A stretch of DNA of 64,000 nucleotides, taken from a phage. Positions 2,919 through 49,183 of the stretch are shown in pieces. Numbering within the stretch: the first letter of the stretch is position 1; every line of letters starts with the position of its first letter. Under the pieces are notes generated by a model, which saw nothing but the letters and a program-made list of their open reading frames with translations, made no database searches and was not told the DNA's origin. The DNA lies in sequence record OZ413489.1; one strand, 5' to 3'. The position numbers and the translations under genes are program-made.

Positions 2919-4475
2919 GTGTCCAAAAAGAACCGCAGGAAACACAACGCCACAGCCAAAACTGTGAATAAATCTGGGAACGCAGGCGCACCAACTCATA
3001 ATGTTCGTATGAGTGAGATCGGTTCTGGCGCACTTTCCCAAATTATGGCAGAATCGCAATCTATGATGGTTGAGGAATTGCGTTGGCCTCAGCTGATTGC
3101 CACAGTGGAGACTATGAAATGTGATTCCACAGTTGCTACTGCCTTAGATACAAAATATGTTTTCATCACGAAAGCATTCAATGATTTTAAGATCCTTTAT
3201 AATGTTAAAAGTGAAGACTCTAAGAAAGCTGCCGAGCTTATAGAGTATTCTTTGCGTAATTTGGCAAACCAACAAACTCTTCGAGATATTGCAAGAAGCG
3301 CAGCTACCTTTAACGAGTATGGTTTTTCACTGTTTGAGAAAGTATACCGCAGAGAGAAAGAAGGTAAATATGCCGGGATGCTTCTTATCGATAAAATTGC
3401 ATTCCGACCTCAGGCCAGCCTGTCCAGATCAGAGCCGTTTGTTTTTGATAAGAATAGCAGAACACTGACAGGTATTTATCAGTCACCTAATGCATTTCTA
3501 AACACTCAGAATGCACGCTGGGCTGGACCTCTTGCTGCAATGCCTTCAAAAAGCTTTAATGAGCCTGAAATTTTCATCCCTGCTAAAAAGCTTATGCTCA
3601 TGACCCTGTCAGGAACAGAATCTAACCCTGCAGGTGTGTCACCGATGATAGGTTGCTACAGATCTTTCCGTGAGAAAGTTCTGATTGAAAACCTTGAGGT
3701 TGTTGGCTGTTCCAAAGACCTTGGTGGTGTGCTTGAGCTGAAAATTCCTTCCAATATTTTGAACAAGGCCAGCATTGACCCGAATTCAATGGAAGGGAGA
3801 ATGGTTGCAGATCTTATGCTTGACGCAGCAAACGCCCATAGTGGTGAGCAAAGTTTCTTTATACTTCCGTCTGATAGAGATAAGTCTGGTAAAGAGCTTT
3901 ACTCCATGACCCTGAAGGGGGTTGACGGTATGGGTAAGCAGTATTCCACTAAAGATTTGATTGATGCCCGTAAGAAGGCGATTCTTGACCGTTTCGGTGC
4001 TGGCTTTATTAACCTCGGTAACGATAACGTTGGATCCTTCTCTCTGTCTGAGTCAAAACAGTCTATCCATGGTCATTTTGTTCAGCGTGATATAGATATT
4101 ATCACTGAAGCCTTCAATAAGGATCTTATTCCACAGCTTCTGGCATTGAATGGTATCATCCTTGAAGATGATGATATGCCTAAACTGAAACCTGGTCTGA
4201 TTGAAGAAGTGGATATGGAGAGCTTCTCCAAGTTTGTCCAGAGGATCGGTGCTGTAGGTTACTTGCCAAAAACTCCTGCAGTAATTAATAAGATTCTTGA
4301 AGTAGGCGGGTTTGATGAAAGATTTGACGAGGACATGGATCAGGAAGAGCTGATGAAGCTCTTGGGCCAGGACATCAGTAGAGCTGGTGATGGAATGGCT
4401 GCAGGATCCACTGGCAACGGCACTTCTAAGATATCATCAACCAGAGATAATTCCATATCCAACATGGAAAATTAA
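2919..4475 (+). CDS. portal protein
   Basis: 518 aa, GTG start with GAGGGG RBS; immediately after terminase; size and position typical of portal. Confidence 0.65.
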   Translation: MSKKNRRKHNATAKTVNKSGNAGAPTHNVRMSEIGSGALSQIMAESQSMMVEELRWPQLIATVETMKCDSTVATALDTKYVFITKAFNDFKILYNVKSEDSKKAAELIEYSLRNLANQQTLRDIARSAATFNEYGFSLFEKVYRREKEGKYAGMLLIDKIAFRPQASLSRSEPFVFDKNSRTLTGIYQSPNAFLNTQNARWAGPLAAMPSKSFNEPEIFIPAKKLMLMTLSGTESNPAGVSPMIGCYRSFREKVLIENLEVVGCSKDLGGVLELKIPSNILNKASIDPNSMEGRMVADLMLDAANAHSGEQSFFILPSDRDKSGKELYSMTLKGVDGMGKQYSTKDLIDARKKAILDRFGAGFINLGNDNVGSFSLSESKQSIHGHFVQRDIDIITEAFNKDLIPQLLALNGIILEDDDMPKLKPGLIEEVDMESFSKFVQRIGAVGYLPKTPAVINKILEVGGFDERFDEDMDQEELMKLLGQDISRAGDGMAAGSTGNGTSKISSTRDNSISNMEN

Positions 4476-7429: not shown

Positions 7430-7462
7430 GGGGAGGGGGTTCTCCCCCTCCCCTTTTTATTT
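7430..7462 (+). terminator. rho-independent terminator
   Basis: GGGGAGGGGG-TTCT-CCCCCTCCCC then TTTTTATTTATT. Confidence 0.75.
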
Positions 7463-9018: not shown

Positions 9019-9047
9019 TTGCTTTTGATGTATCTTTGTGGTAAAAT
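9019..9047 (+). promoter_or_regulatory. sigma70-like promoter, TTGCTT-17-TGgTAAAAT
   Basis: -35 9019-9024, -10 9042-9047 preceded by TGG. Confidence 0.45.
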
Positions 9048-12449: not shown

Positions 12450-12467
12450 GGGCACACTTTAGCATAA

Positions 12468-12496
12468 GCCTCACCTTCGGGTGGGGCTTTTTGCTT
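12468..12496 (+). terminator. rho-independent terminator
   Basis: GCCTCACC-TTCG-GGTGGGGC then TTTTTGCTTTT. Confidence 0.7.
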
Positions 12497-15736: not shown

Positions 15737-15748
15737 TAAACTGTGCAA

Positions 15749-15773
15749 GGGGGCTCCGGCCCCCTTTATTTTA
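15749..15773 (+). terminator. rho-independent terminator
   Basis: GGGGGC-TCCG-GCCCCC then TTTATTTTA. Confidence 0.7.
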
Positions 15774-22806: not shown

Positions 22807-22810
22807 CATA

Positions 22811-22830
22811 GGGGGCTGTTTGCCCCCTTT
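22811..22830 (+). terminator. weak terminator-like hairpin
   Basis: GGGGGC-TGTT-TGCCCCC followed by only TTT. Confidence 0.3.
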
Positions 22831-22841
22831 CAGGAGAAAGA

Positions 22842-27613: not shown

Positions 27614-27620
27614 AGTATTG

Positions 27621-27648
27621 CCCTCGCTTCGGCGGGGGTTTTTTGTTT
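27621..27648 (+). terminator. rho-independent terminator
   Basis: CCCTCGC-TTCG-GCGGGGG then TTTTTTGTTTG. Confidence 0.7.
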
Positions 27649-33119: not shown

Positions 33120-33127
33120 CCTTTAAA

Positions 33128-33153
33128 GCCCCGCTTCGGCGGGGTTTATTTTT
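33128..33153 (+). terminator. rho-independent terminator
   Basis: GCCCCGC-TTCG-GCGGGG then TTTATTTTT. Confidence 0.7.
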
Positions 33154-34726: not shown

Positions 34727-35413
34727 ATGGCAGAGATTAAGTCGGATGTTAACCACATCCACACTCTGCCAGATTTTGTTCAGGGAGGTCTTGACTACCT
34801 GCCTGGAGATTTTCTGGCTGAGAAGGTTAATTTGGTCACATTCTTAACCGTGTACCTTAAAAGGTTGGAGGATGTTGATAAGATGCTGGTAGGTTTGGCT
34901 GAAGGAAGATTGCTTAACAATGCCAGCGGAAGATACCTTGACGAAGTTGGTAATCAACTTGGTATTCTTAGGAATGGACTTTCAGATGCTGATTTTCGTG
35001 CCACACTAATTATTCAGCAGGCCGCAGCATCAAGGGGCGGGACTCGCGAAGATGTCATCTCCACCTTGCGACAATTGTTCGGAAGAAACAATTTCGATAC
35101 GTGGAAAGGAGACAACTTCAGGTTTGACATAAATATTAGAAAAACTTGCTTTGACATATTGCAGTCTATCGATCAGATCTTAGATATGCTACCATTGCCT
35201 TGTCATTTGCGTCTTACAGAATCGCAAGGGCAAGCTTTTGGTTTTGAAGGGGACCATACAGCTCTTGGCTTCGGATCAGTGTGGGAAGAAAACCAATTCG
35301 GAGTTGGTGGGCTGGCTACTTTGCTGTATGTTCCTGACGTAAGACCTGATTGGGACACCACAACCATTTATTGTGAAAGTATTACAGTAAACGCAACTAG
35401 ACAGGAGGGTTAA
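34727..35413 (+). CDS. baseplate protein (gpI-like, tentative)
   Basis: 228 aa; follows J-like gene as in P2/Mu-type baseplate modules. Confidence 0.4.
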   Translation: MAEIKSDVNHIHTLPDFVQGGLDYLPGDFLAEKVNLVTFLTVYLKRLEDVDKMLVGLAEGRLLNNASGRYLDEVGNQLGILRNGLSDADFRATLIIQQAAASRGGTREDVISTLRQLFGRNNFDTWKGDNFRFDINIRKTCFDILQSIDQILDMLPLPCHLRLTESQGQAFGFEGDHTALGFGSVWEENQFGVGGLATLLYVPDVRPDWDTTTIYCESITVNATRQEG

Positions 35414-37485
35414 TGGCAACAGCTATTTTTAAACCTTACCGTGATTACTCTACAATGGCTGCACGGTTTCATTACCGCACAGTTCAGGATACTGCAGTTC
35501 CTGGTAGGGATTATAATCATGTTGAGGGTGATGTAACTATCCCAATTGGGGCAACCAGTATTGAGATCCCAGTGGAAATTGTTGACAAATTACCCAACAG
35601 GTTGCCAAGAAGCTTCTTTATGGAGTTTTCATCAAAATCTCAAGGGGTGATGATTGGAACACAAAGGGCGAAATGTACAATAGTTTCAGATGAGAATCTT
35701 GACAGGATATCTTGGGATACTGTCGAGGAGAGAATGTTTCACCCAAGATATTGGGTTACATCTACCCAGCAGACTGAAAGCACCTGTATTGTTGCAGATA
35801 ATAACTGTTGTATTAACCGTTTAGTGTCAAGAACATATGGAGGTATGGCTGGGTGCATTTGGGAAACAGTTGACAAGTATGACCATTTCGGTATTGGGTT
35901 TGATGATCATTATGAGATGAGAAATACCAAGCTTTGGTTCAGAATGTCAATAACCAACGCCAGCAACTTCTCCACTCCTGAAAAGATGATTATGACTGTA
36001 GACCTTGTTGATGGCACAATCATCTATGTTCCTTTAGCTCAATATGCTGTCAGCATCTCAGAGGATAAGAATGTTGCAGAAATTCATATTGATTTCGAGG
36101 ACTGCGTCGGGATGGACCAGAACAACAATATGATGGGTGTTGATCCTCGACAGGTGAGAAGGATTTTAATACCGCTTATGCCTAAAGATTGGGTAAGCAA
36201 TAGCACAAACCCAAGAACGGAAAATGTAGAGTGTGAGTTGCGCCTAGATCTGCTTCAGCCAGACACAGGCTGGAAAATGATGCAACTTAACAATATTCAG
36301 GTGAAAGAACACGACGTTGGGATCTGCACAGCATATGACGATATGTGGAACGTGTCTCCTTTAAGGGTGTTGAACAATATCAAGCGTCTGGGCTATACCG
36401 GAACCATAAACCATTATGTTGGTATGAGTCATTATTATGACTACACATGGTCAGGAACTCAATGGTCTATAAACAGAACAGGAGCGCTAAACGCTGCAGC
36501 TTATAAATGGCATGATGATTTTATGTACAATGCCAAACGACATAACTTCGACGTTATGCAATCTGTAAGTTTTGAGCTTTTCAGCGATGCCTGCCCGTTG
36601 GAATGGACCCAAAGAGACTGGAACGATAACTACGCTAAAACAGGGTATACACCTTGTAGCTACCTCCTGTCTCCAACCATTGAAGAGGGTATGAATTTCC
36701 TTACTGCAGTATTTAAGAATTTTGCATCAGCCGCTATGAGAAACAACCTGCCAGTGATTATGCAGGTTGGTGAACCGTGGTGGTGGTACAATACCGATAC
36801 TCGTAGACCTTGTATTTATGATTACCCTACAAAGCAGGCGTTTTATGATGAGACAGGTGAGTATGCATTAGATATTGGGACTATTGACGATCCTAAAACT
36901 GGCGGTGTTTACGACAAGTATGTAGCATTTTGTCGTGGTAAGCTTGGCGCTCGTATTGCGGCTATTTCAAAGGCAATAAAGGCACACGCTGCATCAGCTC
37001 AGATGACAGCTCTACTGTTTTTCCCAACCATTATGGAAACCGAGCTTACGCAAAAGCTTAACCTTGCTGACCAATATAAAAAGGAAGCAGGTGCTCTTGA
37101 TTTCTTCTGCACCGAGTGCTACGATTGGGTGATGCAGGGAGGTATTGAAAAGGCAAAAGAGTCTGTAAACATACCTATCGTTAAGTTAGGTTGGCAACCG
37201 TCTGAAATACAATACCTTGCAGGGTTCGTTCCTAGTAAAGAGCTTGCTCCGGTATATGGTTACGACCCAACCAGGAATTACCAAGAATTTTTATGGAGAT
37301 GTATTTGCGGAAACATGGCAACTATAGAGTATAGATATCCTGAGGTAAAACAGTATGTGTGGGCATACCCGCAAGTAATGTCTGACAGCATCACTGTTAC
37401 CGCTAGAGATTCTACCGTGCTTCATATGGGGCAGGTTGCTCTGAAAGGGTATGTAGAAGATGTTGTCCCGCCAGACTTCTCATAA
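35413..37485 (+). CDS. tail-associated protein with Calx-beta-like N-terminus and enzyme-like body
   Basis: 690 aa; GRDYNHVEGDVTIPIGATSIEIPVEIVD resembles a Calx-beta fold; remainder Trp/Tyr-rich. Confidence 0.35.
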   Translation: MATAIFKPYRDYSTMAARFHYRTVQDTAVPGRDYNHVEGDVTIPIGATSIEIPVEIVDKLPNRLPRSFFMEFSSKSQGVMIGTQRAKCTIVSDENLDRISWDTVEERMFHPRYWVTSTQQTESTCIVADNNCCINRLVSRTYGGMAGCIWETVDKYDHFGIGFDDHYEMRNTKLWFRMSITNASNFSTPEKMIMTVDLVDGTIIYVPLAQYAVSISEDKNVAEIHIDFEDCVGMDQNNNMMGVDPRQVRRILIPLMPKDWVSNSTNPRTENVECELRLDLLQPDTGWKMMQLNNIQVKEHDVGICTAYDDMWNVSPLRVLNNIKRLGYTGTINHYVGMSHYYDYTWSGTQWSINRTGALNAAAYKWHDDFMYNAKRHNFDVMQSVSFELFSDACPLEWTQRDWNDNYAKTGYTPCSYLLSPTIEEGMNFLTAVFKNFASAAMRNNLPVIMQVGEPWWWYNTDTRRPCIYDYPTKQAFYDETGEYALDIGTIDDPKTGGVYDKYVAFCRGKLGARIAAISKAIKAHAASAQMTALLFFPTIMETELTQKLNLADQYKKEAGALDFFCTECYDWVMQGGIEKAKESVNIPIVKLGWQPSEIQYLAGFVPSKELAPVYGYDPTRNYQEFLWRCICGNMATIEYRYPEVKQYVWAYPQVMSDSITVTARDSTVLHMGQVALKGYVEDVVPPDFS

Positions 37486-39505: not shown

Positions 39506-39522
39506 CTCTAAAGTGTTAAAAT
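39494..39522 (+). promoter_or_regulatory. sigma70-like promoter, TTGCAT-17-TGtTAAAAT
   Basis: -35 39494-39499 (overlaps terminator 3' end), -10 39517-39522 preceded by TGT. Confidence 0.4.
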
Positions 39523-39552
39523 AGTCCTAAGGAATTTTCTCAGGAGAACGTG

Positions 39553-40883: not shown

Positions 40884-42629
40884 ATGGCGCAAGACATGAC
40901 AAGCTTTGAGCAGGCGGTAGATCAAGTAATTGTTGATTCTGAACGTTTGCACCTGATTGTCAACGGTAACGCTGTGGATGAAGTTGTCGTAGAGGATGGG
41001 ACCACCATCCCTACGGTACGAAAAGCCATGCTTGACACCCTTTATTTTAAAACGCCACCGATCCCTTGGGCGTATGGTGCATCCACAACAGTTTTTAACC
41101 AGCTGTACGAGTTTAAAGGGGACACAGGCCCTCAGTGGTGGTACGCTCCCGCAGCATCAAAATCTAACCCGGTTAGAATGCCAGCAGATCCTTCACAATC
41201 TCCAAACTGGAGATTATATACCGATTCTGCAGTAATGGCAAAATACTACGCAAAACTTAACAGTCCGAGGTTCGAAGGTGACCCGCGAGTACCTACGCCT
41301 CCAATGGACGACAAATCCGAGTCTATAGCAAACACAGAGTTTGTTGTTGACTATGTGGATAGCATATTTGAAGCCATGGAGGGAATGAAAGTTACTGTAG
41401 GGTCTTTGGTGGTAAAAGGTCTTACAGAACTTGCTAACACTATAGTTGGTGGCACACTCACCTTACATGGGCCTGTTAATGGAGCAGATTCTACTGCACG
41501 CTTCAGGAACCTAATCCTCACGGCAAATACTTCTACACTTACTTTTGCGTGGAGTGATCCTAAGCATGCAGACTGGAGAAGCACAGAGCTGCAACCTCAT
41601 GAAGTGTCCACCCACAGGGTTATAGCTGACACTATAACTTCTGGGAAACCAGTGGCTAATAATAACGATGTGCATTTTGATGGTCTAGGTAATAACTTTT
41701 TTGACTACGTGTACATTCGTGGTAATGCCATGAAGGCAGCAACCGAACCGACATTGCAGGTAGATGGAACCACCAGGGTTAAGAACCTTGAGGTGACAGG
41801 CACTGTTACAGGGATAACCTACTCTGTCGATGGCACCATGATTTACCCTAGCTATATTGAAAGCACGGGGGACGCATTAATAAATGGTGATTTAGAAGTT
41901 GGCGGATCTGTAGTTATTCGAGGTACAGCCTCTATCCAAAACATAGCTCTGAATACCCTAAGAGTCAATGAGCGTGCAACTTTTGAAGGGGAAGGGCTTA
42001 CAGCCAACAAAGGTGTAATTACCGAGCTGACAACCACTACTTTAACTGCAACAACTGCAAACTCTGAAAACTGCAACGTTACCAGAAACTTGCAGGTAAA
42101 TGGAGATGTTAGTTTAAACGCAGCAGGGACGGGCACCACCTACCTTCACAACCTTGAAATATCCGGCACAGTGACTGGGTGGCTGCCAGACTTCTCTAAT
42201 GTCAACTTTGTTTGTAATGGCATTAACTCCAGTGGCAAGATAACCACCTCTCAAGAAATTGAGGCGGGTAAAACCATTACTGCCCCTACTTTCCACGCAG
42301 GAAAGGTAGATTTTGATTTAGAGGAGGTTGACGCGTCCAGTGGGACATGGACACCTAACGGGCAGGCCAGTATGTATGTTGTCCACGCGAAAGGGGATTT
42401 TACAATAGGACAATGGCCTGGTACATCAGCGGAAGATAAACCTTATCCATTCACTGCGGTTATCTATGTCATTCAGGATGCTGTAGGTCACAACGTGACT
42501 TTGCACGATAAGTATGCTATCCTGTCGGCAACGCCTGTTATTAATAACAAGGCTAATAGTGTTACCTTGCTGCAATTAACATATTGTGGTGTTGGTGATA
42601 TCGTAGACGTAGTAATTGCACAACGTTAA
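40884..42629 (+). CDS. tail fibre or spike protein
   Basis: 581 aa; AAGGAG RBS; Thr/Gly/Val-rich beta-helix-like repeats. Confidence 0.4.
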   Translation: MAQDMTSFEQAVDQVIVDSERLHLIVNGNAVDEVVVEDGTTIPTVRKAMLDTLYFKTPPIPWAYGASTTVFNQLYEFKGDTGPQWWYAPAASKSNPVRMPADPSQSPNWRLYTDSAVMAKYYAKLNSPRFEGDPRVPTPPMDDKSESIANTEFVVDYVDSIFEAMEGMKVTVGSLVVKGLTELANTIVGGTLTLHGPVNGADSTARFRNLILTANTSTLTFAWSDPKHADWRSTELQPHEVSTHRVIADTITSGKPVANNNDVHFDGLGNNFFDYVYIRGNAMKAATEPTLQVDGTTRVKNLEVTGTVTGITYSVDGTMIYPSYIESTGDALINGDLEVGGSVVIRGTASIQNIALNTLRVNERATFEGEGLTANKGVITELTTTTLTATTANSENCNVTRNLQVNGDVSLNAAGTGTTYLHNLEISGTVTGWLPDFSNVNFVCNGINSSGKITTSQEIEAGKTITAPTFHAGKVDFDLEEVDASSGTWTPNGQASMYVVHAKGDFTIGQWPGTSAEDKPYPFTAVIYVIQDAVGHNVTLHDKYAILSATPVINNKANSVTLLQLTYCGVGDIVDVVIAQR

Positions 42630-42638
42630 TATATATCT

Positions 42639-42669
42639 AACCGCTCCTGACGGGGCGGTTTTCTTATCT
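42639..42669 (+). terminator. rho-independent terminator immediately upstream of giant gene
   Basis: AACCGCTCC-TGAC-GGGGCGGTT then TTCTTATCT; only about 10 nt before RBS of 42680. Confidence 0.55.
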
Positions 42670-42679
42670 GGAGAACACA

Positions 42680-45600
42680 ATGCTTCCAATCCCTTTGCTA
42701 AAACTTGGTCGTCATTTCCTCGATAAGAGGGGTGGAATTAAGGAACTTGCTGTTCTGTCATACCCAATAGACAACAGTGATGGTACAAGCAACACAGTAT
42801 CCTATGTAAATAGCTTAGCTATACTTTTTGATGATGGTCAGCTTAATATTACTGGCTATAATAGGTTCGGAGAGTGTCGGACTGGAGATCTTGATACAAT
42901 AAACTATCCTAATGAGGCAGCTTGGAACGTAGACCATGTTTGGAGAGCTGACCGTGCATTTGTAATCCGCACATTCGATAATAAATTTTTCTATATTGGT
43001 TGCACAGCTGGTCTTATCGGATCGGAGGCAGCAGGTGGAAACGATGTTTGTGTCAGAGAGTGGACACCTTTGCCGGAACAGATCGTAACAGGGTTGCATT
43101 TGGACACCCATCCTGAGAGACTTGTTGAAGTAATGGGTGGCGTAAACAATACAGTGTGGGTAATTGCTGCACCAGAGGCTGATGGTATGCTTCACCTGTA
43201 CGGCTCTGGCAATAATACTTACGGCTCTCTTCATGTTGACAAAAGTCAACACGCTACTCCAGTTAAGATCGGTGAAACATCTGAAAGTCCAGAGACAGGT
43301 CCTTGGAAAAATCCAAGAATTAATTGTGAAGTTCATGACAACTCGGTTATTTTTGGTGGTCCTAACGGATTCTGGATTGCAGGTTACGATTTCTTAAGAA
43401 ATAACAGCAAAAACACACTAGTTTATCCAGCCGAGCATGTGACTCTTGACCAGTTTAAAGGCATCCCGGTGGGCGAGACATGGAAAGGGTTCATGTGTGG
43501 ACCTAATGGTGCAATTATAGCCACAGAAAGGATGCACAAACCTGATGACCAACAGCTTGTTAACGTATTCTACGGGCAAGACGTCTGGGGAGATGACACA
43601 TGGCGTTCCTTAAATATCACCTACACCCATGAGGTGATAATGGCTCGTGGATACGGCACAAGTGGCATTTTCTTCAATAATGGCACTAAACAGTATCGTG
43701 GATTCTCTCGCAACTTGTGTAATGATATTGGTGCACAATCTGCAAACAATAGCCCTAGGGCTAATTTTATCCACTATCAGGCTCTTGCTACAGCTAAATA
43801 TGTTGAGCAACGCCTGCCAGTTAGCTGGACAGAGAGTGTTTATTTCCAAGGCATCCACAGGGAAGGTTTCTTAGGAACCTTTACTGTTGTTAATGGCAAA
43901 CTTTGGTGGTCAGGCATCCCAAGGGGGAGTTTTGCAGGATCTAACAACCTCTTTGGCGGCAGACTTAACAGCCAAGGGTTCACAGAGATTCCGGAGAATT
44001 GGTATAAAAATGTCCCGGTAGATAGCTGGGGTATCGAAGACATCTTTGATGTCAATGGTGTGAGCAATGTTAGCAACATTTACATCGGAGATACTGTCAA
44101 GATGAAATTGAAACCTCAGCCGGAGGGTGCTACGTTCATTATTGACAAGATTGAGTTGGTAAATGCTGCAGGCACTGTTGTTACAGATGCAAACTATCAG
44201 TTCTCCACTAACTGGAACCATGGTGGTGCTAACGAAGTTGTGGTCACCCAGTATAACCGTAACATCAACAGACGTGGTTTGTATTCTATCAAGATCACCT
44301 ACCATGACAAGCATGGCACTGGAAGAACCTGTACGACAAGGACTTTGAACTGGAACACTATAGTTCCTGCGTATCCGTCCAACGGCAAGTGGCATACCGT
44401 TGGTAGAAACAAGCAGTTCCATGTTAACGATACTGTATACTTTGGGCTGAATGGGACCCAGCCTGCAGTAGAAGGGGATACATCGTATATGGTCAGACTC
44501 CACAGAATGGATGCTGGATCAGTCACTTATGATGTGACCCAAGAGATCTACGATCAAAGACGCGCCACGTATGACAATATTGTGAAAACACAAGCCTTGT
44601 GGAAGTTCAATCCTAATGGCAAGGGTGGTAAAATGTTGCAGGTTAATGAGCAGAACGGAACGTCGTTGACTGTTCACGAACACCCAGACCCTTGGCCTGA
44701 TCCTGGAAAACCTCACCCGGGAGCTCGTACACTGAAAATTGTCAGCCATGATGCAGGGTATTTCGGAATACGCTGGGAAGCTACAGTAAGATATGTCGAC
44801 GGGACAACAAACAACATAGGGATTACACTTGGCGGCACTAGTGAAGATAACTCGCTGAAAATTGCCTACACGCCTAGAGGTATCTCTATTGATAATATGG
44901 ATGTTGTTCGCAATGGTTACGGCGATGTGAATGTCAAAGTTACTCTTGGCGAACATCTTGGTGGGGAAAGGATCATCATGTATGCCTTTGATCATGATCC
45001 ACGCACCAATGGAACTTATGCAAATCAGGCATGGAGTTACCTGATAAATGCACCTGAGCCGAATACTAAAGAGTTCTACTATGGTATGAAGCGAGATGTG
45101 TGCAAGAAAACAGGAACACATGACTGGATTGCTATCTGCGTTAAAGATGAGCGCACAGCTTGGGATGAGCCTGTTAACAGATGGTTCATAGGTATTCCTA
45201 CCAGAAGTGATAAGTATGTCGCAGAATATATTGTATGCATGGGCGGTACCAACCTAAACATGTGTTGGAACGAAGATGTAAACAAATACTCTGATTATGA
45301 CTATATGAGGGATTACTCTTGTAATTTGTGGTTTAACCAAACTACAGGTTACCCTCCGCGTCAGGCAAGGGTAAATCCTGCAATCTTTACAGATACGCAG
45401 GTTTTCTTGACAAAACAGGCCAACGAGGTTCAGACCTTCAAGAATAACTATGACCCTAACAAGTGGTTCTACAACTGTTACGGCGCATTTTTCTGGGGAC
45501 CTGGTGAGTTACCTGGTGGAGGATCTTGCTTGAATGAGGCAACTTACGCCAGTGACTACATCATGGGGCAGGTCAAGAAGTATAAGATAATCCCCGGTCC

Positions 45601-48316
45601 TGAGACTCTGGGCAATGCCGTTGACCCTTATATCATCATGACTGCACTGAGATCAAACATGGACGGGACATCCATGTCTATGCAAATTCCGGTAACAAAC
45701 GGGTACAAACGTGTTGTGATGATCATTAAGTGCGATCTGATCGGGAAGCAAGTTCTTGCAGAAAACGGGACATCCACACATCCTTTTGAGATCGCTCTGC
45801 ACTATCAGTTTGCTGACTCACCTTTTGCAGGGGATAAGAGAATATCTGATACAGACGCACAGCGTTGTAAGAAAGTATTGTTGGGTGCAGGTTGGTGGTG
45901 GTATGAGTTTGATTTAACAGACAAATTCACCGACACGTCTAAAGTTGTAACAGGACTTCGTCTAGACCTTGGCGAGAACATGCACAAAGCTGTTTGTGAT
46001 GGCACCTATGGTGACCCTACAATATACCTAAAATATGTTTCTTTTGAGCATCCGGAAGATGTTGTCTACGGTCCAAAACTGAGATTGTTTGGCAGCTGGA
46101 TTGCAAAAGATAGGGTAGGCATGGGTAAGAAGGTAAGAGGGCTCTTGGTTGATGCAGGAACAGAAGACATGCTGGTTAATGCAGTGTGGCCTGAATTACC
46201 TGGGACTCAGTGGGACAACTCAGCCAAATCTATAAACTGGTTTAACATTCATAGGGCCATGTGGACCACTAACTGCTACTTGTGGAGAGAGCTTAACGAT
46301 CAGGCCTTTGGATTCAGCGATGGTAGAAGGATGGCGATCATTTGCTGGACAACACTGCAAAGATGTTATGACCATGACTATGAGATTGGGGGCAGGGCAT
46401 GGAAAAATATCAGGGATAGAATCATAACCAATTTTGCAGACGACAACGGTGGTGGAGCACATAACTTTGGCACAAGCCGACTCATCCATTTGAACGGATC
46501 CTCAGCCTACAAGAAAGAAGGTTACTCTGGGTCTATGATCGAGTGGGGTCTGGTGAAAGATGCTCGCGTATTGATGGGCCAGCAACTTGCTGCCGCAATA
46601 GGTCCCAGCGCAGTGCAGTCGGTTAAACCAGCGTGGTTCGATATTCCATTGTGGTCACCCGGAACACCGGGAACTGCTGCAATCAACCCTACCACTGGGG
46701 ATCTAGAAATCTCCTGGGAGGACTTGAAGCAGGTCGGTGGTTGGGACAAAACAGGGTACCAGGTTCAGTGGTGGAGAGCTGATGGATCTTTAGCTGCTGA
46801 TGAGTTTGTTAAGGACAATTTCTACACTATGTCCTCTGCAAAAGCACAGCAATTATTTGGTCAGGCAACTCCGTCAACGATCACCATGTCTATGTGCTGT
46901 AAAGACAACAGGACTGGAGCTTTGGGGCCAAGGGTTGCTAAAGTTTTCTCAGGTATTAAATGGAATCTACCTGTCCAAAGTATTTCATGGAAGCAAATAG
47001 GTGATAACAAGCTGCTGGTTACCCCTGCCTGTCAGTTCAACGCAACTCTTAACGTTGATCCTGCTGTTGCGGCAAACTCAGCTAAAGCTTCTGACTTCTC
47101 TGTGTCTAACACTGCTATGGCAGATGTGAGGAAGATTGACACGCTGAACGCCAGAATTACCTGTAAAAACACTTATGGCACATTCCAGATCATCAACAAC
47201 TTCACAGATGCTGATTCTAAGGTAGTGAGGACAGCAAGCCAGACTTTGAGTTTAGGAACTCTGGCCTATGCGGCCCTGATCACTGAACAGTCGGCAACAC
47301 TCCAAGGAGGTGGTGTAGGCAAGTCCATTACAACACCTGTGTGGAAGCCAAATGAGTGGGTTGTGTTTGATTTGACTGTGGACTTCTCCAGCGATAATAA
47401 CTGGACATGGGTAAGGAATTGTTTGTCACAGTTGATGGGCGGTCCAAGCTCCGTTAGTGATAGTCACGACTCTACTGACCCGAGTGTGTTCCAGGTAGGT
47501 AAAACTCACCCAGAGACTGGAGAAACGTTGCCTGACAGGAAGTATGCTTTGGTTTGCATCTCTTACGGGAAGGCAGATGTCACCTTCTCAGGGACACACA
47601 CTTATAACGGAACCTACAACTTCTCAAGGAAGTATAGTCTCAAAGCAGGGAACATTATAGACGAGGTTGGTGTGCTGTATAATCCGGGCAACGGCATAGG
47701 GATTGTTGGTGGTAAACTGCAGATGCAGGAACCTTCTATTACCCCTTCCAACGTATCCGGGATTAGAAAGACTTGGGAAAGTAGTAATACCAACATTGCA
47801 ACAGTGGATGCCACCACAGGACTGGTAACATTTAAAGCTACTGGGAATGTCACCATAAAGTTTGTAGTTACAGATGATGCAGGGCGCAAAACGTCTTCAA
47901 CATCTTTTACTGTCAAACAGATGGCACCACAGTGGAGAATGTGGATAGGTACAGCAACAAACGGGGCATACCCTAATCCGGCAGGTACTTCTGGTATGAA
48001 GACTTTCTCTACAAGCAAACCGATGGAGTACGGCAGCGGTCCTAAGGTAGGGCAGATGGTGTACTTTGGTGCGTATATTCCTGAAATTATAGGGCTTCCG
48101 AGAAGTCAGCTTCAGTTGCTGTTTGGGGCTGGTGTTGACGATCTTGCCACTTTCGGGTATAGCGACAACATCGAGGCTGCAAGGAGTTCAGGATGGGTAG
48201 GGTTCAGAATGGAGTCTGGAAAGGAAGGCAGGATTCTAGGGACAGCCTCTATAGGTGTTATGTTCCCTGGTGACCAGCAGTATCGTCTAGAAGCCTACGC
48301 AACCTTTTCTCGTTAA
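42680..48316 (+). CDS. giant virion-associated protein with C-terminal Ig-like domain
   Basis: 1878 aa; GGAGA RBS; Big_2-like segment (TWESSNTNIATVDATTGLVTFKATGNVTIKFVVTDDAGRKTSSTSFTV); last gene of the plus-strand operon. Confidence 0.4.
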   Translation: MLPIPLLKLGRHFLDKRGGIKELAVLSYPIDNSDGTSNTVSYVNSLAILFDDGQLNITGYNRFGECRTGDLDTINYPNEAAWNVDHVWRADRAFVIRTFDNKFFYIGCTAGLIGSEAAGGNDVCVREWTPLPEQIVTGLHLDTHPERLVEVMGGVNNTVWVIAAPEADGMLHLYGSGNNTYGSLHVDKSQHATPVKIGETSESPETGPWKNPRINCEVHDNSVIFGGPNGFWIAGYDFLRNNSKNTLVYPAEHVTLDQFKGIPVGETWKGFMCGPNGAIIATERMHKPDDQQLVNVFYGQDVWGDDTWRSLNITYTHEVIMARGYGTSGIFFNNGTKQYRGFSRNLCNDIGAQSANNSPRANFIHYQALATAKYVEQRLPVSWTESVYFQGIHREGFLGTFTVVNGKLWWSGIPRGSFAGSNNLFGGRLNSQGFTEIPENWYKNVPVDSWGIEDIFDVNGVSNVSNIYIGDTVKMKLKPQPEGATFIIDKIELVNAAGTVVTDANYQFSTNWNHGGANEVVVTQYNRNINRRGLYSIKITYHDKHGTGRTCTTRTLNWNTIVPAYPSNGKWHTVGRNKQFHVNDTVYFGLNGTQPAVEGDTSYMVRLHRMDAGSVTYDVTQEIYDQRRATYDNIVKTQALWKFNPNGKGGKMLQVNEQNGTSLTVHEHPDPWPDPGKPHPGARTLKIVSHDAGYFGIRWEATVRYVDGTTNNIGITLGGTSEDNSLKIAYTPRGISIDNMDVVRNGYGDVNVKVTLGEHLGGERIIMYAFDHDPRTNGTYANQAWSYLINAPEPNTKEFYYGMKRDVCKKTGTHDWIAICVKDERTAWDEPVNRWFIGIPTRSDKYVAEYIVCMGGTNLNMCWNEDVNKYSDYDYMRDYSCNLWFNQTTGYPPRQARVNPAIFTDTQVFLTKQANEVQTFKNNYDPNKWFYNCYGAFFWGPGELPGGGSCLNEATYASDYIMGQVKKYKIIPGPETLGNAVDPYIIMTALRSNMDGTSMSMQIPVTNGYKRVVMIIKCDLIGKQVLAENGTSTHPFEIALHYQFADSPFAGDKRISDTDAQRCKKVLLGAGWWWYEFDLTDKFTDTSKVVTGLRLDLGENMHKAVCDGTYGDPTIYLKYVSFEHPEDVVYGPKLRLFGSWIAKDRVGMGKKVRGLLVDAGTEDMLVNAVWPELPGTQWDNSAKSINWFNIHRAMWTTNCYLWRELNDQAFGFSDGRRMAIICWTTLQRCYDHDYEIGGRAWKNIRDRIITNFADDNGGGAHNFGTSRLIHLNGSSAYKKEGYSGSMIEWGLVKDARVLMGQQLAAAIGPSAVQSVKPAWFDIPLWSPGTPGTAAINPTTGDLEISWEDLKQVGGWDKTGYQVQWWRADGSLAADEFVKDNFYTMSSAKAQQLFGQATPSTITMSMCCKDNRTGALGPRVAKVFSGIKWNLPVQSISWKQIGDNKLLVTPACQFNATLNVDPAVAANSAKASDFSVSNTAMADVRKIDTLNARITCKNTYGTFQIINNFTDADSKVVRTASQTLSLGTLAYAALITEQSATLQGGGVGKSITTPVWKPNEWVVFDLTVDFSSDNNWTWVRNCLSQLMGGPSSVSDSHDSTDPSVFQVGKTHPETGETLPDRKYALVCISYGKADVTFSGTHTYNGTYNFSRKYSLKAGNIIDEVGVLYNPGNGIGIVGGKLQMQEPSITPSNVSGIRKTWESSNTNIATVDATTGLVTFKATGNVTIKFVVTDDAGRKTSSTSFTVKQMAPQWRMWIGTATNGAYPNPAGTSGMKTFSTSKPMEYGSGPKVGQMVYFGAYIPEIIGLPRSQLQLLFGAGVDDLATFGYSDNIEAARSSGWVGFRMESGKEGRILGTASIGVMFPGDQQYRLEAYATFSR

Positions 48317-48325
48317 CAAGGGGGT

Positions 48326-48359
48326 AAATAAAAAGGGGCCAAACGGCCCCTTTCTTTTT
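48326..48359. terminator. bidirectional rho-independent terminator
   Basis: A-run, GGGGCC-AAAC-GGCCCC, T-run; between convergent genes. Confidence 0.75.
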
Positions 48360-48363
48360 ATAG

Positions 48364-48564
48364 TTAGTAATACTCCCAACATGCCCCATCTTCAGACGGC
48401 TTGACGCGCTTACCTTTATGGTCAACATAGGTATAGCCACAACCTTCACAAATAACAGGTGCTGCATAACCTTCCTTCCACTGCTTCTCCGTGATCAATC
48501 CTTTCAGATCTCCGCAGTCACGACCAAACAACTCTTCAGAACAGTCTTTACAAAAATCAGCCAT
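48364..48564 (-). CDS. small Cys-rich zinc-ribbon-like protein
   Basis: 66 aa; CxxC...C...CxGC pattern (CKDC, CEGCG). Confidence 0.35.
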   Translation of the reverse strand: MADFCKDCSEELFGRDCGDLKGLITEKQWKEGYAAPVICEGCGYTYVDHKGKRVKPSEDGACWEYY

Positions 48565-48633
48565 CTCTATCAGTCTCCATATTTAACCAATCTATATTAC
48601 ATATTGCCGAAGAAACAGTATTTCATTTCATTA

Positions 48634-48852
48634 TCACAGATCTCCAACAACTTCCCAAATACCCCAGTGAGCATCTATATCCTTGATAAAGTATCTTTCT
48701 CCACGGTTTGTCCACACACCTATCCCAACTTTACCATCTATCCCATTGTATACATCTGCCTCATACTCTTTGCCCGGTGTAAAGTGTACACCCATCATAA
48801 GGGCTGTTATTCCATTAGGATTTTTAAATTTAACAAATTTTACTTTGCTCAT
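48634..48852 (-). CDS. hypothetical protein
   Basis: 72 aa ORF, compact spacing with neighbours. Confidence 0.3.
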   Translation of the reverse strand: MSKVKFVKFKNPNGITALMMGVHFTPGKEYEADVYNGIDGKVGIGVWTNRGERYFIKDIDAHWGIWEVVGDL

Positions 48853-48853
48853 A

Positions 48854-49183
48854 TTACTTAATCCTTGCAGTTACAGTAGCGCTATACCCCATGTAGTTAT
48901 GAGACATAAAGAATGTAAGCCCTTTAAGTTCAGGATTCTTTCTAAGAAATCGTTTCAATTTTCGAATGCAATTAACACCATGATCATAGTTTGAGAAATT
49001 AAATTTAATACCCTGCTCCATCATAGTGCACACTTCTTCATGGGTATGCCATTGTCTATCGTGGTCACAAAACCAGTAACCAATACCTTCTTTTTCTTGG
49101 ATATGCAATCCCCAAAATACTTTATGCATTGGATATTTTGGTTTTCTACCATGATAATGTAGTTTAATATTCACATGTGCCAT
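48854..49183 (-). CDS. hypothetical His/Cys-rich protein
   Basis: 109 aa; GGAG RBS 9 nt upstream of ATG; candidate promoter upstream. Confidence 0.35.
   Translation of the reverse strand: MAHVNIKLHYHGRKPKYPMHKVFWGLHIQEKEGIGYWFCDHDRQWHTHEEVCTMMEQGIKFNFSNYDHGVNCIRKLKRFLRKNPELKGLTFFMSHNYMGYSATVTARIK

Follow-up and report, generated by a model that had tools for sequence, protein, structure and literature searches.

A giant protein with Ig-like domains at the end of the Vequintavirus tail-fibre module, encoded behind a conserved terminator-like hairpin

A Giant Gene at the End of the Tail-Fibre Module

The 64,000-nucleotide (nt) stretch of phage DNA analyzed here (sequence record OZ413489.1; hereafter the window) derives from a Vequintavirus, i.e., an rV5-like myovirus of Escherichia coli. 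It contained on the + strand, at 42680..48316, an ATG-initiated gene for a giant protein of 1878 amino acids (aa; calculated mass 208.3 kDa) that is the orthologue of rV5 gp27 and of bas54_0041. On balance, this protein is probably a low-abundance accessory adhesin of a multivalent tail-fibre apparatus, with a dose lowered by a leaky terminator. A conserved N-terminal RCC1-like β-propeller would dock the giant protein to the virion, most plausibly at the distal head of the fibre built by the gp28-like product of the preceding gene; a chain of β-sandwiches and a lineage-specific core would act as spacer or extension; and a variable C-terminal array of immunoglobulin (Ig)-like and Big_2 domains would contact a host-surface polymer on some hosts. 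Transcription would start at a late promoter approximately 3.1 kb upstream, or at promoters further up, and would pass through a leaky intrinsic terminator that separates the giant gene from the essential fibre gene and may keep the giant protein at a lower dose than the fibre. What we infer on attenuation, copy number, attachment site, virion location, oligomeric state and ligand is drawn from the open reading frame (ORF) and its domains, the hairpin and its conservation, and the synteny, together with the published dispensability of an orthologue and its weak detection by mass spectrometry. The adhesin reading is based on a Big_2 domain that scored above its cut-off and on the Ig-, cadherin- and S-layer-like strings returned by Foldseek; moreover, the protein displayed a conservation gradient like that of a receptor-binding protein, with a conserved N-terminus (~75%) and a variable C-terminus (15-40%).

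The gene, its Big_2 domain and both flanking terminators were already described for rV5 (Kropinski, 2013; PMC3606486). The present analysis adds the conservation of the upstream hairpin, with compensatory changes, in four lineages, the lack of a late-promoter motif after that hairpin, and a putative RCC1-like propeller shared with other genera, and it links the published dispensability and weak virion detection to the gene. Few E. coli phages are isolated as frequently as the Vequintavirinae, which have a broad lysis host range and are of therapeutic interest. The assignment of their fibres to genes was left unresolved in the BASEL paper (Maffei et al., 2021), as is also apparent from structural papers of 2025-2026. 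The giant protein (208 kDa) is the largest product of the fibre module, and viewing it as an attenuated, dispensable and propeller-anchored Ig array would narrow where in cryogenic electron microscopy (cryo-EM) maps, and on which hosts, to look for it. Its core of approximately 500 aa, which had no detectable relative outside the family among 1.84 billion representative proteins, is a defined piece of phage "dark matter."

A megablast search with the 7-kb stretch around the gene (42000-49000) matched 125 phage records; in 108 of these, the alignment extended over no less than 80% of the query, with identities of 80-99%. The annotated matches were almost all Vequintavirus phages of Escherichia, and more than 100 genomes of this genus carried the locus at 93-98% nucleotide identity. 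The same range was found for 15 GenBank records that name a "Campylobacter phage" (MG0656xx; C. jejuni is given as the host in 14), whose host attribution looks doubtful. As stated in a preliminary description of the window, the ORF was the largest present, the next two encoding 1479 and 1279 aa. The PHROG group of rV5 gp27 orthologues (phrog_15684) matched the giant protein over residues 1-1878 of 1878 (4528 bits), and amino-acid identity with P0001 and bas54_0041 was 94-95% (95% for bas54_0041). The rV5 gene 27 product was reported as a conserved hypothetical protein with Big_2, of 1878 aa and 208,334 Da (Kropinski, 2013). Its length, position and terminator sequences are the same and nothing of substance is different, the window representing another isolate of the genus; the C-terminal 448 aa were 98.7% identical to phage V5. 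In the BASEL collection, the orthologues bas53_0040 and bas54_0041 are labelled "lateral tail fiber protein with intimin domain" and rV5 gp27 is referred to as the last large lateral tail fibre gene (Maffei et al., 2021). The locus is the same, but "lateral tail fiber" is an annotation and not a demonstrated structure, the "intimin domain" corresponds to a single Big_2 repeat, and no trimerisation motif or fibre-type fold was found.

In annotated relatives, the late genes for the head, tail, baseplate and numerous fibres form a long + strand operon, which runs into a 581-aa fibre gene and then into the giant gene, which is the last + strand gene of the tail-fibre module and is followed by small genes on the - strand. 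In the window, the preceding gene (40884..42629, + strand) encoded a gp28-like fibre protein of 581 aa (phrog_4549), a candidate docking partner of the giant protein. The position after a gp28-like fibre gene was conserved in Vequintavirus, Phapecoctavirus, Seunavirus and three contigs of 110-140 kb from Logan assemblies (SRR26820253, SRR25477885, and SRR24705493; L007, L008, and L009, respectively). The homologues on these contigs had 1930-1976 aa, 45-58% identity and the same synteny, while a collection of 50,697 phage genomes held no record matching the N-terminus at 60-80% identity; judged by sequence, L007-L009 look like an uncultured sister lineage of Vequintavirus. Translation of the giant gene is predicted to begin from a ribosome-binding site GGAG at 42671-42674, a 5-nt spacer and the ATG at 42680-42682 (42671..42682, + strand), and the arrangement GGAG(N5-6)ATG followed by M[L/F]PIP was common to all relatives examined. 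In the RefSeq record of phage JES2013 (NC_022323), the start of the gene was set 100 nt past the conserved GGAG-ATG of MLPIP, the two starts lying at 3679 and 3779 of the locus, giving 1841 aa rather than ~1875 aa.

A Conserved Terminator-Like Hairpin Upstream of the Giant Gene

The terminator-like element between the two genes (42639..42668, + strand), the proposed attenuator, is equivalent to t028 of rV5. It consisted of a hairpin, AACCGCTCC-TGAC-GGGGCGGTT, at 42639-42660, and an interrupted T-run, TTCTTAT, ahead of the GGAG at 42671 and the ATG at 42680. The upstream gene stops at 42629, 9 nt before the hairpin, and the distance to the ATG was approximately 11 nt from the end of the T-run and 19 nt from the stem. 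Folding of the 71-nt region gave -17.8 kcal/mol (z = -2.6 relative to shuffles). The element showed the hallmarks of an intrinsic terminator, namely a 9-bp stem with six GC pairs, a 4-nt loop, an UUUUCUUAU tail and an intergenic location on the transcribed strand. The preliminary description had placed a strong terminator within 10 nt of the gene; the hairpin is real and the distance approximately right, but its strength was not borne out, given the interruption of the U-tract (UUUUCUUAU) and a published value of -12.4 kcal/mol for t028, which is among the weakest of 20 rV5 terminators and identical in sequence to the window hairpin (Table S4 of Kropinski, 2013).

A lenient terminator scan of the window returned eight sites against 8.2 expected, i.e., no enrichment. 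On the other hand, a strict scan (minimum of 8 bp and five GC pairs in the stem, plus a T-run; Markov-resampled sequence as the null) detected 10 sites in the window compared to 0.6 ± 0.95 in the resampled sequences, and all nine sites on the + strand were intergenic. Owing to this excess and intergenic placement, the hairpin can be regarded as part of a clearly non-random set.

The hairpin was identical in every Vequintavirus locus compared. In the sister lineage, where the intergenic region could be aligned, the stem was AGCCTCTCC/GGAGAGGCT, and the window and L007 differed by two double compensatory changes and one wobble-to-Watson-Crick change. At this site, the sequences of Phapecoctavirus nieznany and Seunavirus GAP31 were unrelated, yet in both a GC-rich hairpin and a T-run separated the fibre-gene stop from the GGAG-ATG of the MFPIP protein. 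Across the five distinct versions of the hairpin, 97.8% of the cells were paired, compared to 71% in shuffles and at most 68% with partners slid, although part of the covariation counted over four lineages is built in, because the hairpins of the two lineages that could not be aligned were picked by eye. A terminator-like element appears robustly conserved in position before the last gene of the tail module in at least two subfamilies. This positional conservation points to a function of the hairpin, either attenuation or stabilisation of the upstream transcript at its 3' end, and the conservation across four lineages favours real attenuation, which would result in a lower transcript dose. Pairing between the T-run and the Shine-Dalgarno sequence was also considered as a translational control and was dropped as an unavoidable by-product of U-rich sequence lying beside purine-rich sequence.

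Transcription of the Late Operon

A late-promoter motif resembling TGGTAAAATA has been proposed for rV5 (Kropinski, 2013). Motifs of this type occurred 10 times in the window against 1.45 expected, and on the + strand were located ahead of gene blocks at 9039, 12560, 27672, 33183, and 39514. The copy nearest upstream of the giant gene, TGTTAAAATA (39514..39523, + strand), is the equivalent of rV5 P030 and, at a distance of approximately 3.1 kb, is the likely source of the transcripts that reach the gene. The motif search of the + strand between 39523 and 42680 found no further late-promoter motif, and the sigma-70-like matches near the giant gene (9/12, at 42379 and 42576) were weak and located in the end of the upstream gene; such matches in the region numbered 26, barely in excess of the 18.5 ± 3.7 in shuffles. 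The earlier suggestion that the giant gene has no promoter of its own is supported by motif searching, in the sense that none could be recognised.

Five of the seven internal terminators of the late operon had a late motif, or an equivalent annotated in rV5, within approximately 100 nt downstream. The two that were not followed by a late motif were the one at 7430, after the capsid genes, and the one before the giant gene. At its other end, the giant gene is followed by a hairpin with T-runs on both strands (48332..48353, both strands), a bidirectional terminator that matches t026/t027 of rV5 and is shared with the convergent - strand genes, in agreement with the preliminary description, which had placed the gene last before such a terminator. 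Bidirectional terminators were likewise reported between rV5 genes 26 and 27, the pair t026/t027 following gene 27 (Table S4 of Kropinski, 2013). The giant gene was the only gene located alone between two terminators without a recognisable promoter and, as far as motifs can tell, would be expressed only via terminator read-through. Elsewhere in the operon, cassettes composed of a terminator and a TGGTAAAATA-like motif would reset transcript levels block by block.

Strong hairpin terminators punctuated the late operon at 7430-7453, 12467-12488, 15747-15766, 27620-27639, and 33126-33147. A further GC-rich hairpin (GGGGGCTGTTTGCCCCC, 22807-22841), with a weak T-run and no late motif, was situated directly before the gene for the 1479-aa fibre protein, which is thus a second large fibre gene with a preceding hairpin.

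Domain Architecture of the Giant Protein

Proteins of 16 cluster representatives were aligned. Identity to the distant lineage was approximately 75% over aa 1-440 and 27-65% over aa 441-1440, where it peaked at 70% for aa 1161-1200; over aa 1440-1878 it was 15-40%. Word-indexed homologue searches retrieved 15 clusters with the full-length sequence, eight with an N-terminal profile and two with the C-terminal 289 aa, all from the same phage group. Prediction of domains and structure in segments, as proposed in the preliminary description, yielded recognisable Ig-like domains, but the two AlphaFold2 models (overlapping halves, aa 1-1000 and 841-1878; alignments of 16-21 sequences) were both poor overall, with mean predicted local distance difference test (pLDDT) scores of 45 and 55, so that domain boundaries are approximate. 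Only isolated β-sandwich domains in these models can be treated as trustworthy, and the fold searches run on such low-confidence models gave generic Ig-string and RCC1 matches that lend weak support.

The N-terminal part (aa 1 to ~445; 42680..44014, + strand) was the most conserved and is the proposed virion-docking module. It could be aligned over approximately 440 aa, at 26-32% identity, with nieznany gp214 (891 aa) and GAP31_232 (567 aa), in which the Pfam RCC1 repeat (PF00415) scored 24-37 bits (cut-off 21.7) and an RCC1-like-domain model E = 1e-9 to 1e-11, followed by Big_2. These two proteins occupy the same position after a gp28-like gene, with the same order of hairpin, ribosome-binding site and ATG of M[F/L]PIP, and they share the N-terminal domain with the giant protein whereas their remainders differ: the approximately 1,000-1,300 aa of Ig-like domains and orphan core are missing, and the C-termini are alike only at the level of Big_2. 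The window protein itself remained below the Pfam thresholds for RCC1-type membership (WD40_RLD, PF25390, E = 4e-4 and 20 bits against a cut-off of 150; RCC1_2, 13.8 bits against 22). Foldseek matched the N-terminal model to the propellers of HERC1, UVR8, and RCC1 with probability 1.0, the pLDDT of the model being below 50 over most of the domain. The domain is therefore called an RCC1-like β-propeller by transitive homology and not by direct membership. To our knowledge, docking via an RCC1-like β-propeller has not yet been described for phage fibres.

The region that follows (aa ~446-840; 44015..45199, + strand) was predicted to contain Ig-like β-sandwich domains, with strand blocks at aa 449-564 and 737-838 (pLDDT 60-82) and multi-β-sandwich matches by Foldseek. 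The lineage-restricted orphan core (aa ~841-1330; 45200..46669, + strand) comprised a Cys-containing segment, a β-sandwich at aa ~970-1125 (pLDDT 74-86) and a predicted helical segment at aa ~1126-1330 that was unreliable (pLDDT 24-43). No match to the core was found among Pfam, NCBIfam, or PDB sequence profiles, and an exhaustive hidden Markov model search of the 1.84 billion representative proteins with a core profile built from eight diverse sequences recovered only its own family.

The C-terminal region (aa ~1331-1878, including the terminal domain; 46670..48313, + strand) contained an FN3-like domain and an Ig-like array, was the most variable part, and is the proposed ligand-binding end. 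The Big_2-like Ig segment that had been noticed near the C-terminus was confirmed at aa 1682-1733 as a Pfam Big_2 domain (E = 4e-8; 33.5-36.8 bits, cut-off 22.8). The model was confident at aa 1590-1760 (pLDDT 79-93), and its Foldseek matches included cadherin, Sap S-layer, NUP210, Hoc-like Ig strings and Ig-bearing phage proteins. Within the phage collection, the C-terminal 448 aa were restricted to Vequintavirus, and nearly all copies were ~86-100% identical, mostly at 95% or more or near 87%. The Big_2 repeat aligned to the Ig repeats of intimin and invasin, with PDB matches over 48 residues at E = 3e-3. An assignment to the intimins was rejected: the NCBIfam model scored 24 bits against a cut-off of 1400 on one repeat only, and the β-barrel anchor, LysM and C-type-lectin tip were absent.

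Neither Pfam nor PHROG indicated a coiled coil, triple β-helix, collagen-like repeat or chaperone/assembly domain in the giant protein, and self-BLAST detected no internal sequence repeats. The sequence gives no indication of a classical trimeric tail fibre or tailspike: no trimerisation element was identified, the models consisted of separate β-sandwiches, and the fold matches were monomeric Ig strings.

Dispensability and Virion Association

Transposon-insertion sequencing of Bas54 (HIDEN-SEQ preprint, 2025) revealed that bas54_0041 tolerates disruptive insertions and is dispensable for infective virions and for infection of E. coli K-12, whereas the gp28-like gene bas54_0040 was not among the dispensable fibre genes. 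Some Bas54 fibre genes were conditionally essential on clinical isolates, although the text does not name which. In phage V18 (NC_041937.1, 13503-18065), the giant gene was present as four coding sequences over 4.56 kb, approximately 1 kb short, beside an intact gp28-like neighbour. This fragmentation points to the gene having decayed naturally in this one isolate and fits its dispensability. The split gene of phage vB_Eco_Alma was not counted as decay, since many neighbouring genes were split too, and was treated as sequencing error.

Mass spectrometry of rV5 virions identified gp27 as one of 19 proteins, with three peptides, nine spectra and 3.1% coverage (Kropinski, 2013), but the peptides, of non-tryptic or semi-tryptic type, had modest scores similar to those of gp1 and gp228. 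The earlier proposal of a low-copy virion protein is compatible with these data, which offer weak support for gp27 as a low-abundance component. In Septuagintavirus W70 and Certrevirus CB7, the gene beside a tail-fibre gene encodes a virion protein confirmed by mass spectrometry, likened to gp27 by position only; separate RCC1-like proteins are also virion components in these phages.

A role in ejection, raised in the preliminary description, is unlikely, and an ejection protein was rejected as a candidate: the string of β-sandwiches is of an extracellular type, and the 95%-identical orthologue is dispensable for infective virions and K-12 infection. In myoviruses, ejection functions are encoded elsewhere.

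The cryo-EM study of Bas54 resolved three of nine annotated fibres, at the baseplate. One of them consists of an N-terminal helical bundle, two β-helices and a C-terminal head that touches an extra density which no fibre model fitted, and according to the authors the density could belong to a longer fibre complex or be an adhesin at the tip. In the window, the gp28-like protein had helix-prone N-terminal segments, β-helix-like repeats and a globular C-terminal part, and its homologues in L007-L009 carried the Pfam domains Phage_phiTE_241_N/C, named after the phiTE_241 protein; the phiTE paper names no locus tags for its third fibre. From these features we infer that the gp28-like protein may be the Bas54 fibre that touches the extra density, which would make the giant protein a candidate for that density.

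A more specific version of the accessory-adhesin reading is possible, but we hold it only tentatively and would not expect it to be borne out in full. According to this version, the giant protein is the extra density on the head of the Bas54 lateral fibre, a monomeric bead-string adhesin of ~200 kDa docked on a trimeric fibre via its propeller, with a core of ~500 aa that is novel at the fold level and possibly a new glycan-active domain, and with a stoichiometry set by the conserved leaky terminator.

Several points weigh against the accessory-adhesin reading as a whole. The T-run was poor in L007-L009 (TTTACTGTAT), so that termination in that lineage may be inefficient. The main role of the hairpin could be to stabilise the upstream mRNA at its 3' end, and a literature search for Vequintavirus transcriptomics (Term-seq and RNA-seq) yielded nothing relevant. 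The match of the gp28-like protein to the Bas54 "TC8/RBP65" fibre is tentative. To these are added the partly constructed covariation count, the modest peptides and the poor models noted above, and the filing of the matching C-terminal protein family under head functions, as discussed below.

Alternative Explanations

The alternative that retains the most weight, although unlikely, is an enzyme-bearing fibre, in which the core (aa ~840-1330) would degrade or modify glycans as a new type of domain, removing capsule or other exopolysaccharide on particular hosts, with the Ig and FN3 domains serving as carbohydrate-binding modules. The peak of conservation at aa 1161-1200, where 70% identity to the distant lineage nearly reached the level of the N-terminus, many invariant Asp, Glu, His and Trp residues in the core, and the confident β-sandwich at aa 970-1125, a possible carbohydrate-binding module beside the predicted helical region, would all fit such a domain, and Vequintavirinae fibres are known for glycan-active domains (Maffei et al., 2021). 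However, an enzyme role, as entertained in the preliminary description, found no backing from any method used: no enzyme domain or family was detected in the giant protein by Pfam, NCBIfam, PDB profile or 1.84-billion-protein profile searches, the helical segment was modelled at very low confidence, and Foldseek returned no catalytic fold.

Slightly less likely still is a Hoc-like decoration fibre of the capsid or neck, with an Ig array projecting from the head and adhering weakly to mucus or surfaces instead of serving the tail in recognising the host. T4 Hoc and other Ig-bearing accessory phage proteins resemble the giant protein, at the level of fold matches, in being dispensable in the laboratory, in their tandem Ig-like domains and in a suspected weak adhesion to surface polymers. 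The C-terminal 290 aa (aa 1592-1877, E = 2e-47) matched phrog_215, a "structural protein with Ig domain" that PHROGs places in its head and packaging category, fold matches in BFVD included a "highly immunogenic outer capsid protein" and a major head protein with Ig domains, and both the dispensability of the orthologue and the finding of three baseplate fibres against nine annotated in Bas54 would be in keeping with a location on the head. T4 Hoc, on the other hand, is small, binds to the capsid and has its gene among those for the head, whereas the giant protein has 1878 aa with a predicted propeller and an orphan core and is encoded at the end of the tail-fibre module. Furthermore, its N-terminal domain is common to the syntenic last gene of the tail module in three other lineages, the Ig fold matches are generic, and no capsid-binding domain was identified.

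Finally, a non-structural or decaying gene, for which the late fibre operon would in truth end at the hairpin and the ORF would be barely expressed cargo without a part in the virion, would be consistent with terminators on both sides, the lack of a recognisable promoter, the dispensable orthologue, the fragmentation in V18 and the weak mass-spectrometric evidence, but is very improbable in view of a 5.6-kb ORF that was intact in more than 100 genomes (C-terminus ~86-100% identical) and in the sister lineage at 45-58% identity, with a good conserved ribosome-binding site and the domain-wise conservation expected under purifying selection.

Other Features of the Locus and Its Relatives

The GenBank record of phage vB_Eco_Alma annotates a terminator at the site of the upstream hairpin. 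The Bas54 genome contains an unexplained essential non-coding region, located outside the equivalent of the fibre locus of the window (HIDEN-SEQ preprint, 2025). In two of the sister-lineage contigs (L008, 13189-14298; L009, 13163-14008; both on the - strand), a protein with a Pfam match to YadA_anchor, the anchor of trimeric autotransporters, was encoded approximately 1.3 kb past the giant gene on the opposite strand, an odd domain for a lytic phage. Further upstream in the window, a 690-aa protein (35413-37485, + strand) matched the Pfam "non-contractile tail sheath protein TIM barrel" at E = 4e-80, together with its N-terminal domain and Calx-beta; it corresponds to the N4-gp65-like fibre that the BASEL paper linked to recognition of the enterobacterial common antigen (Maffei et al., 2021).

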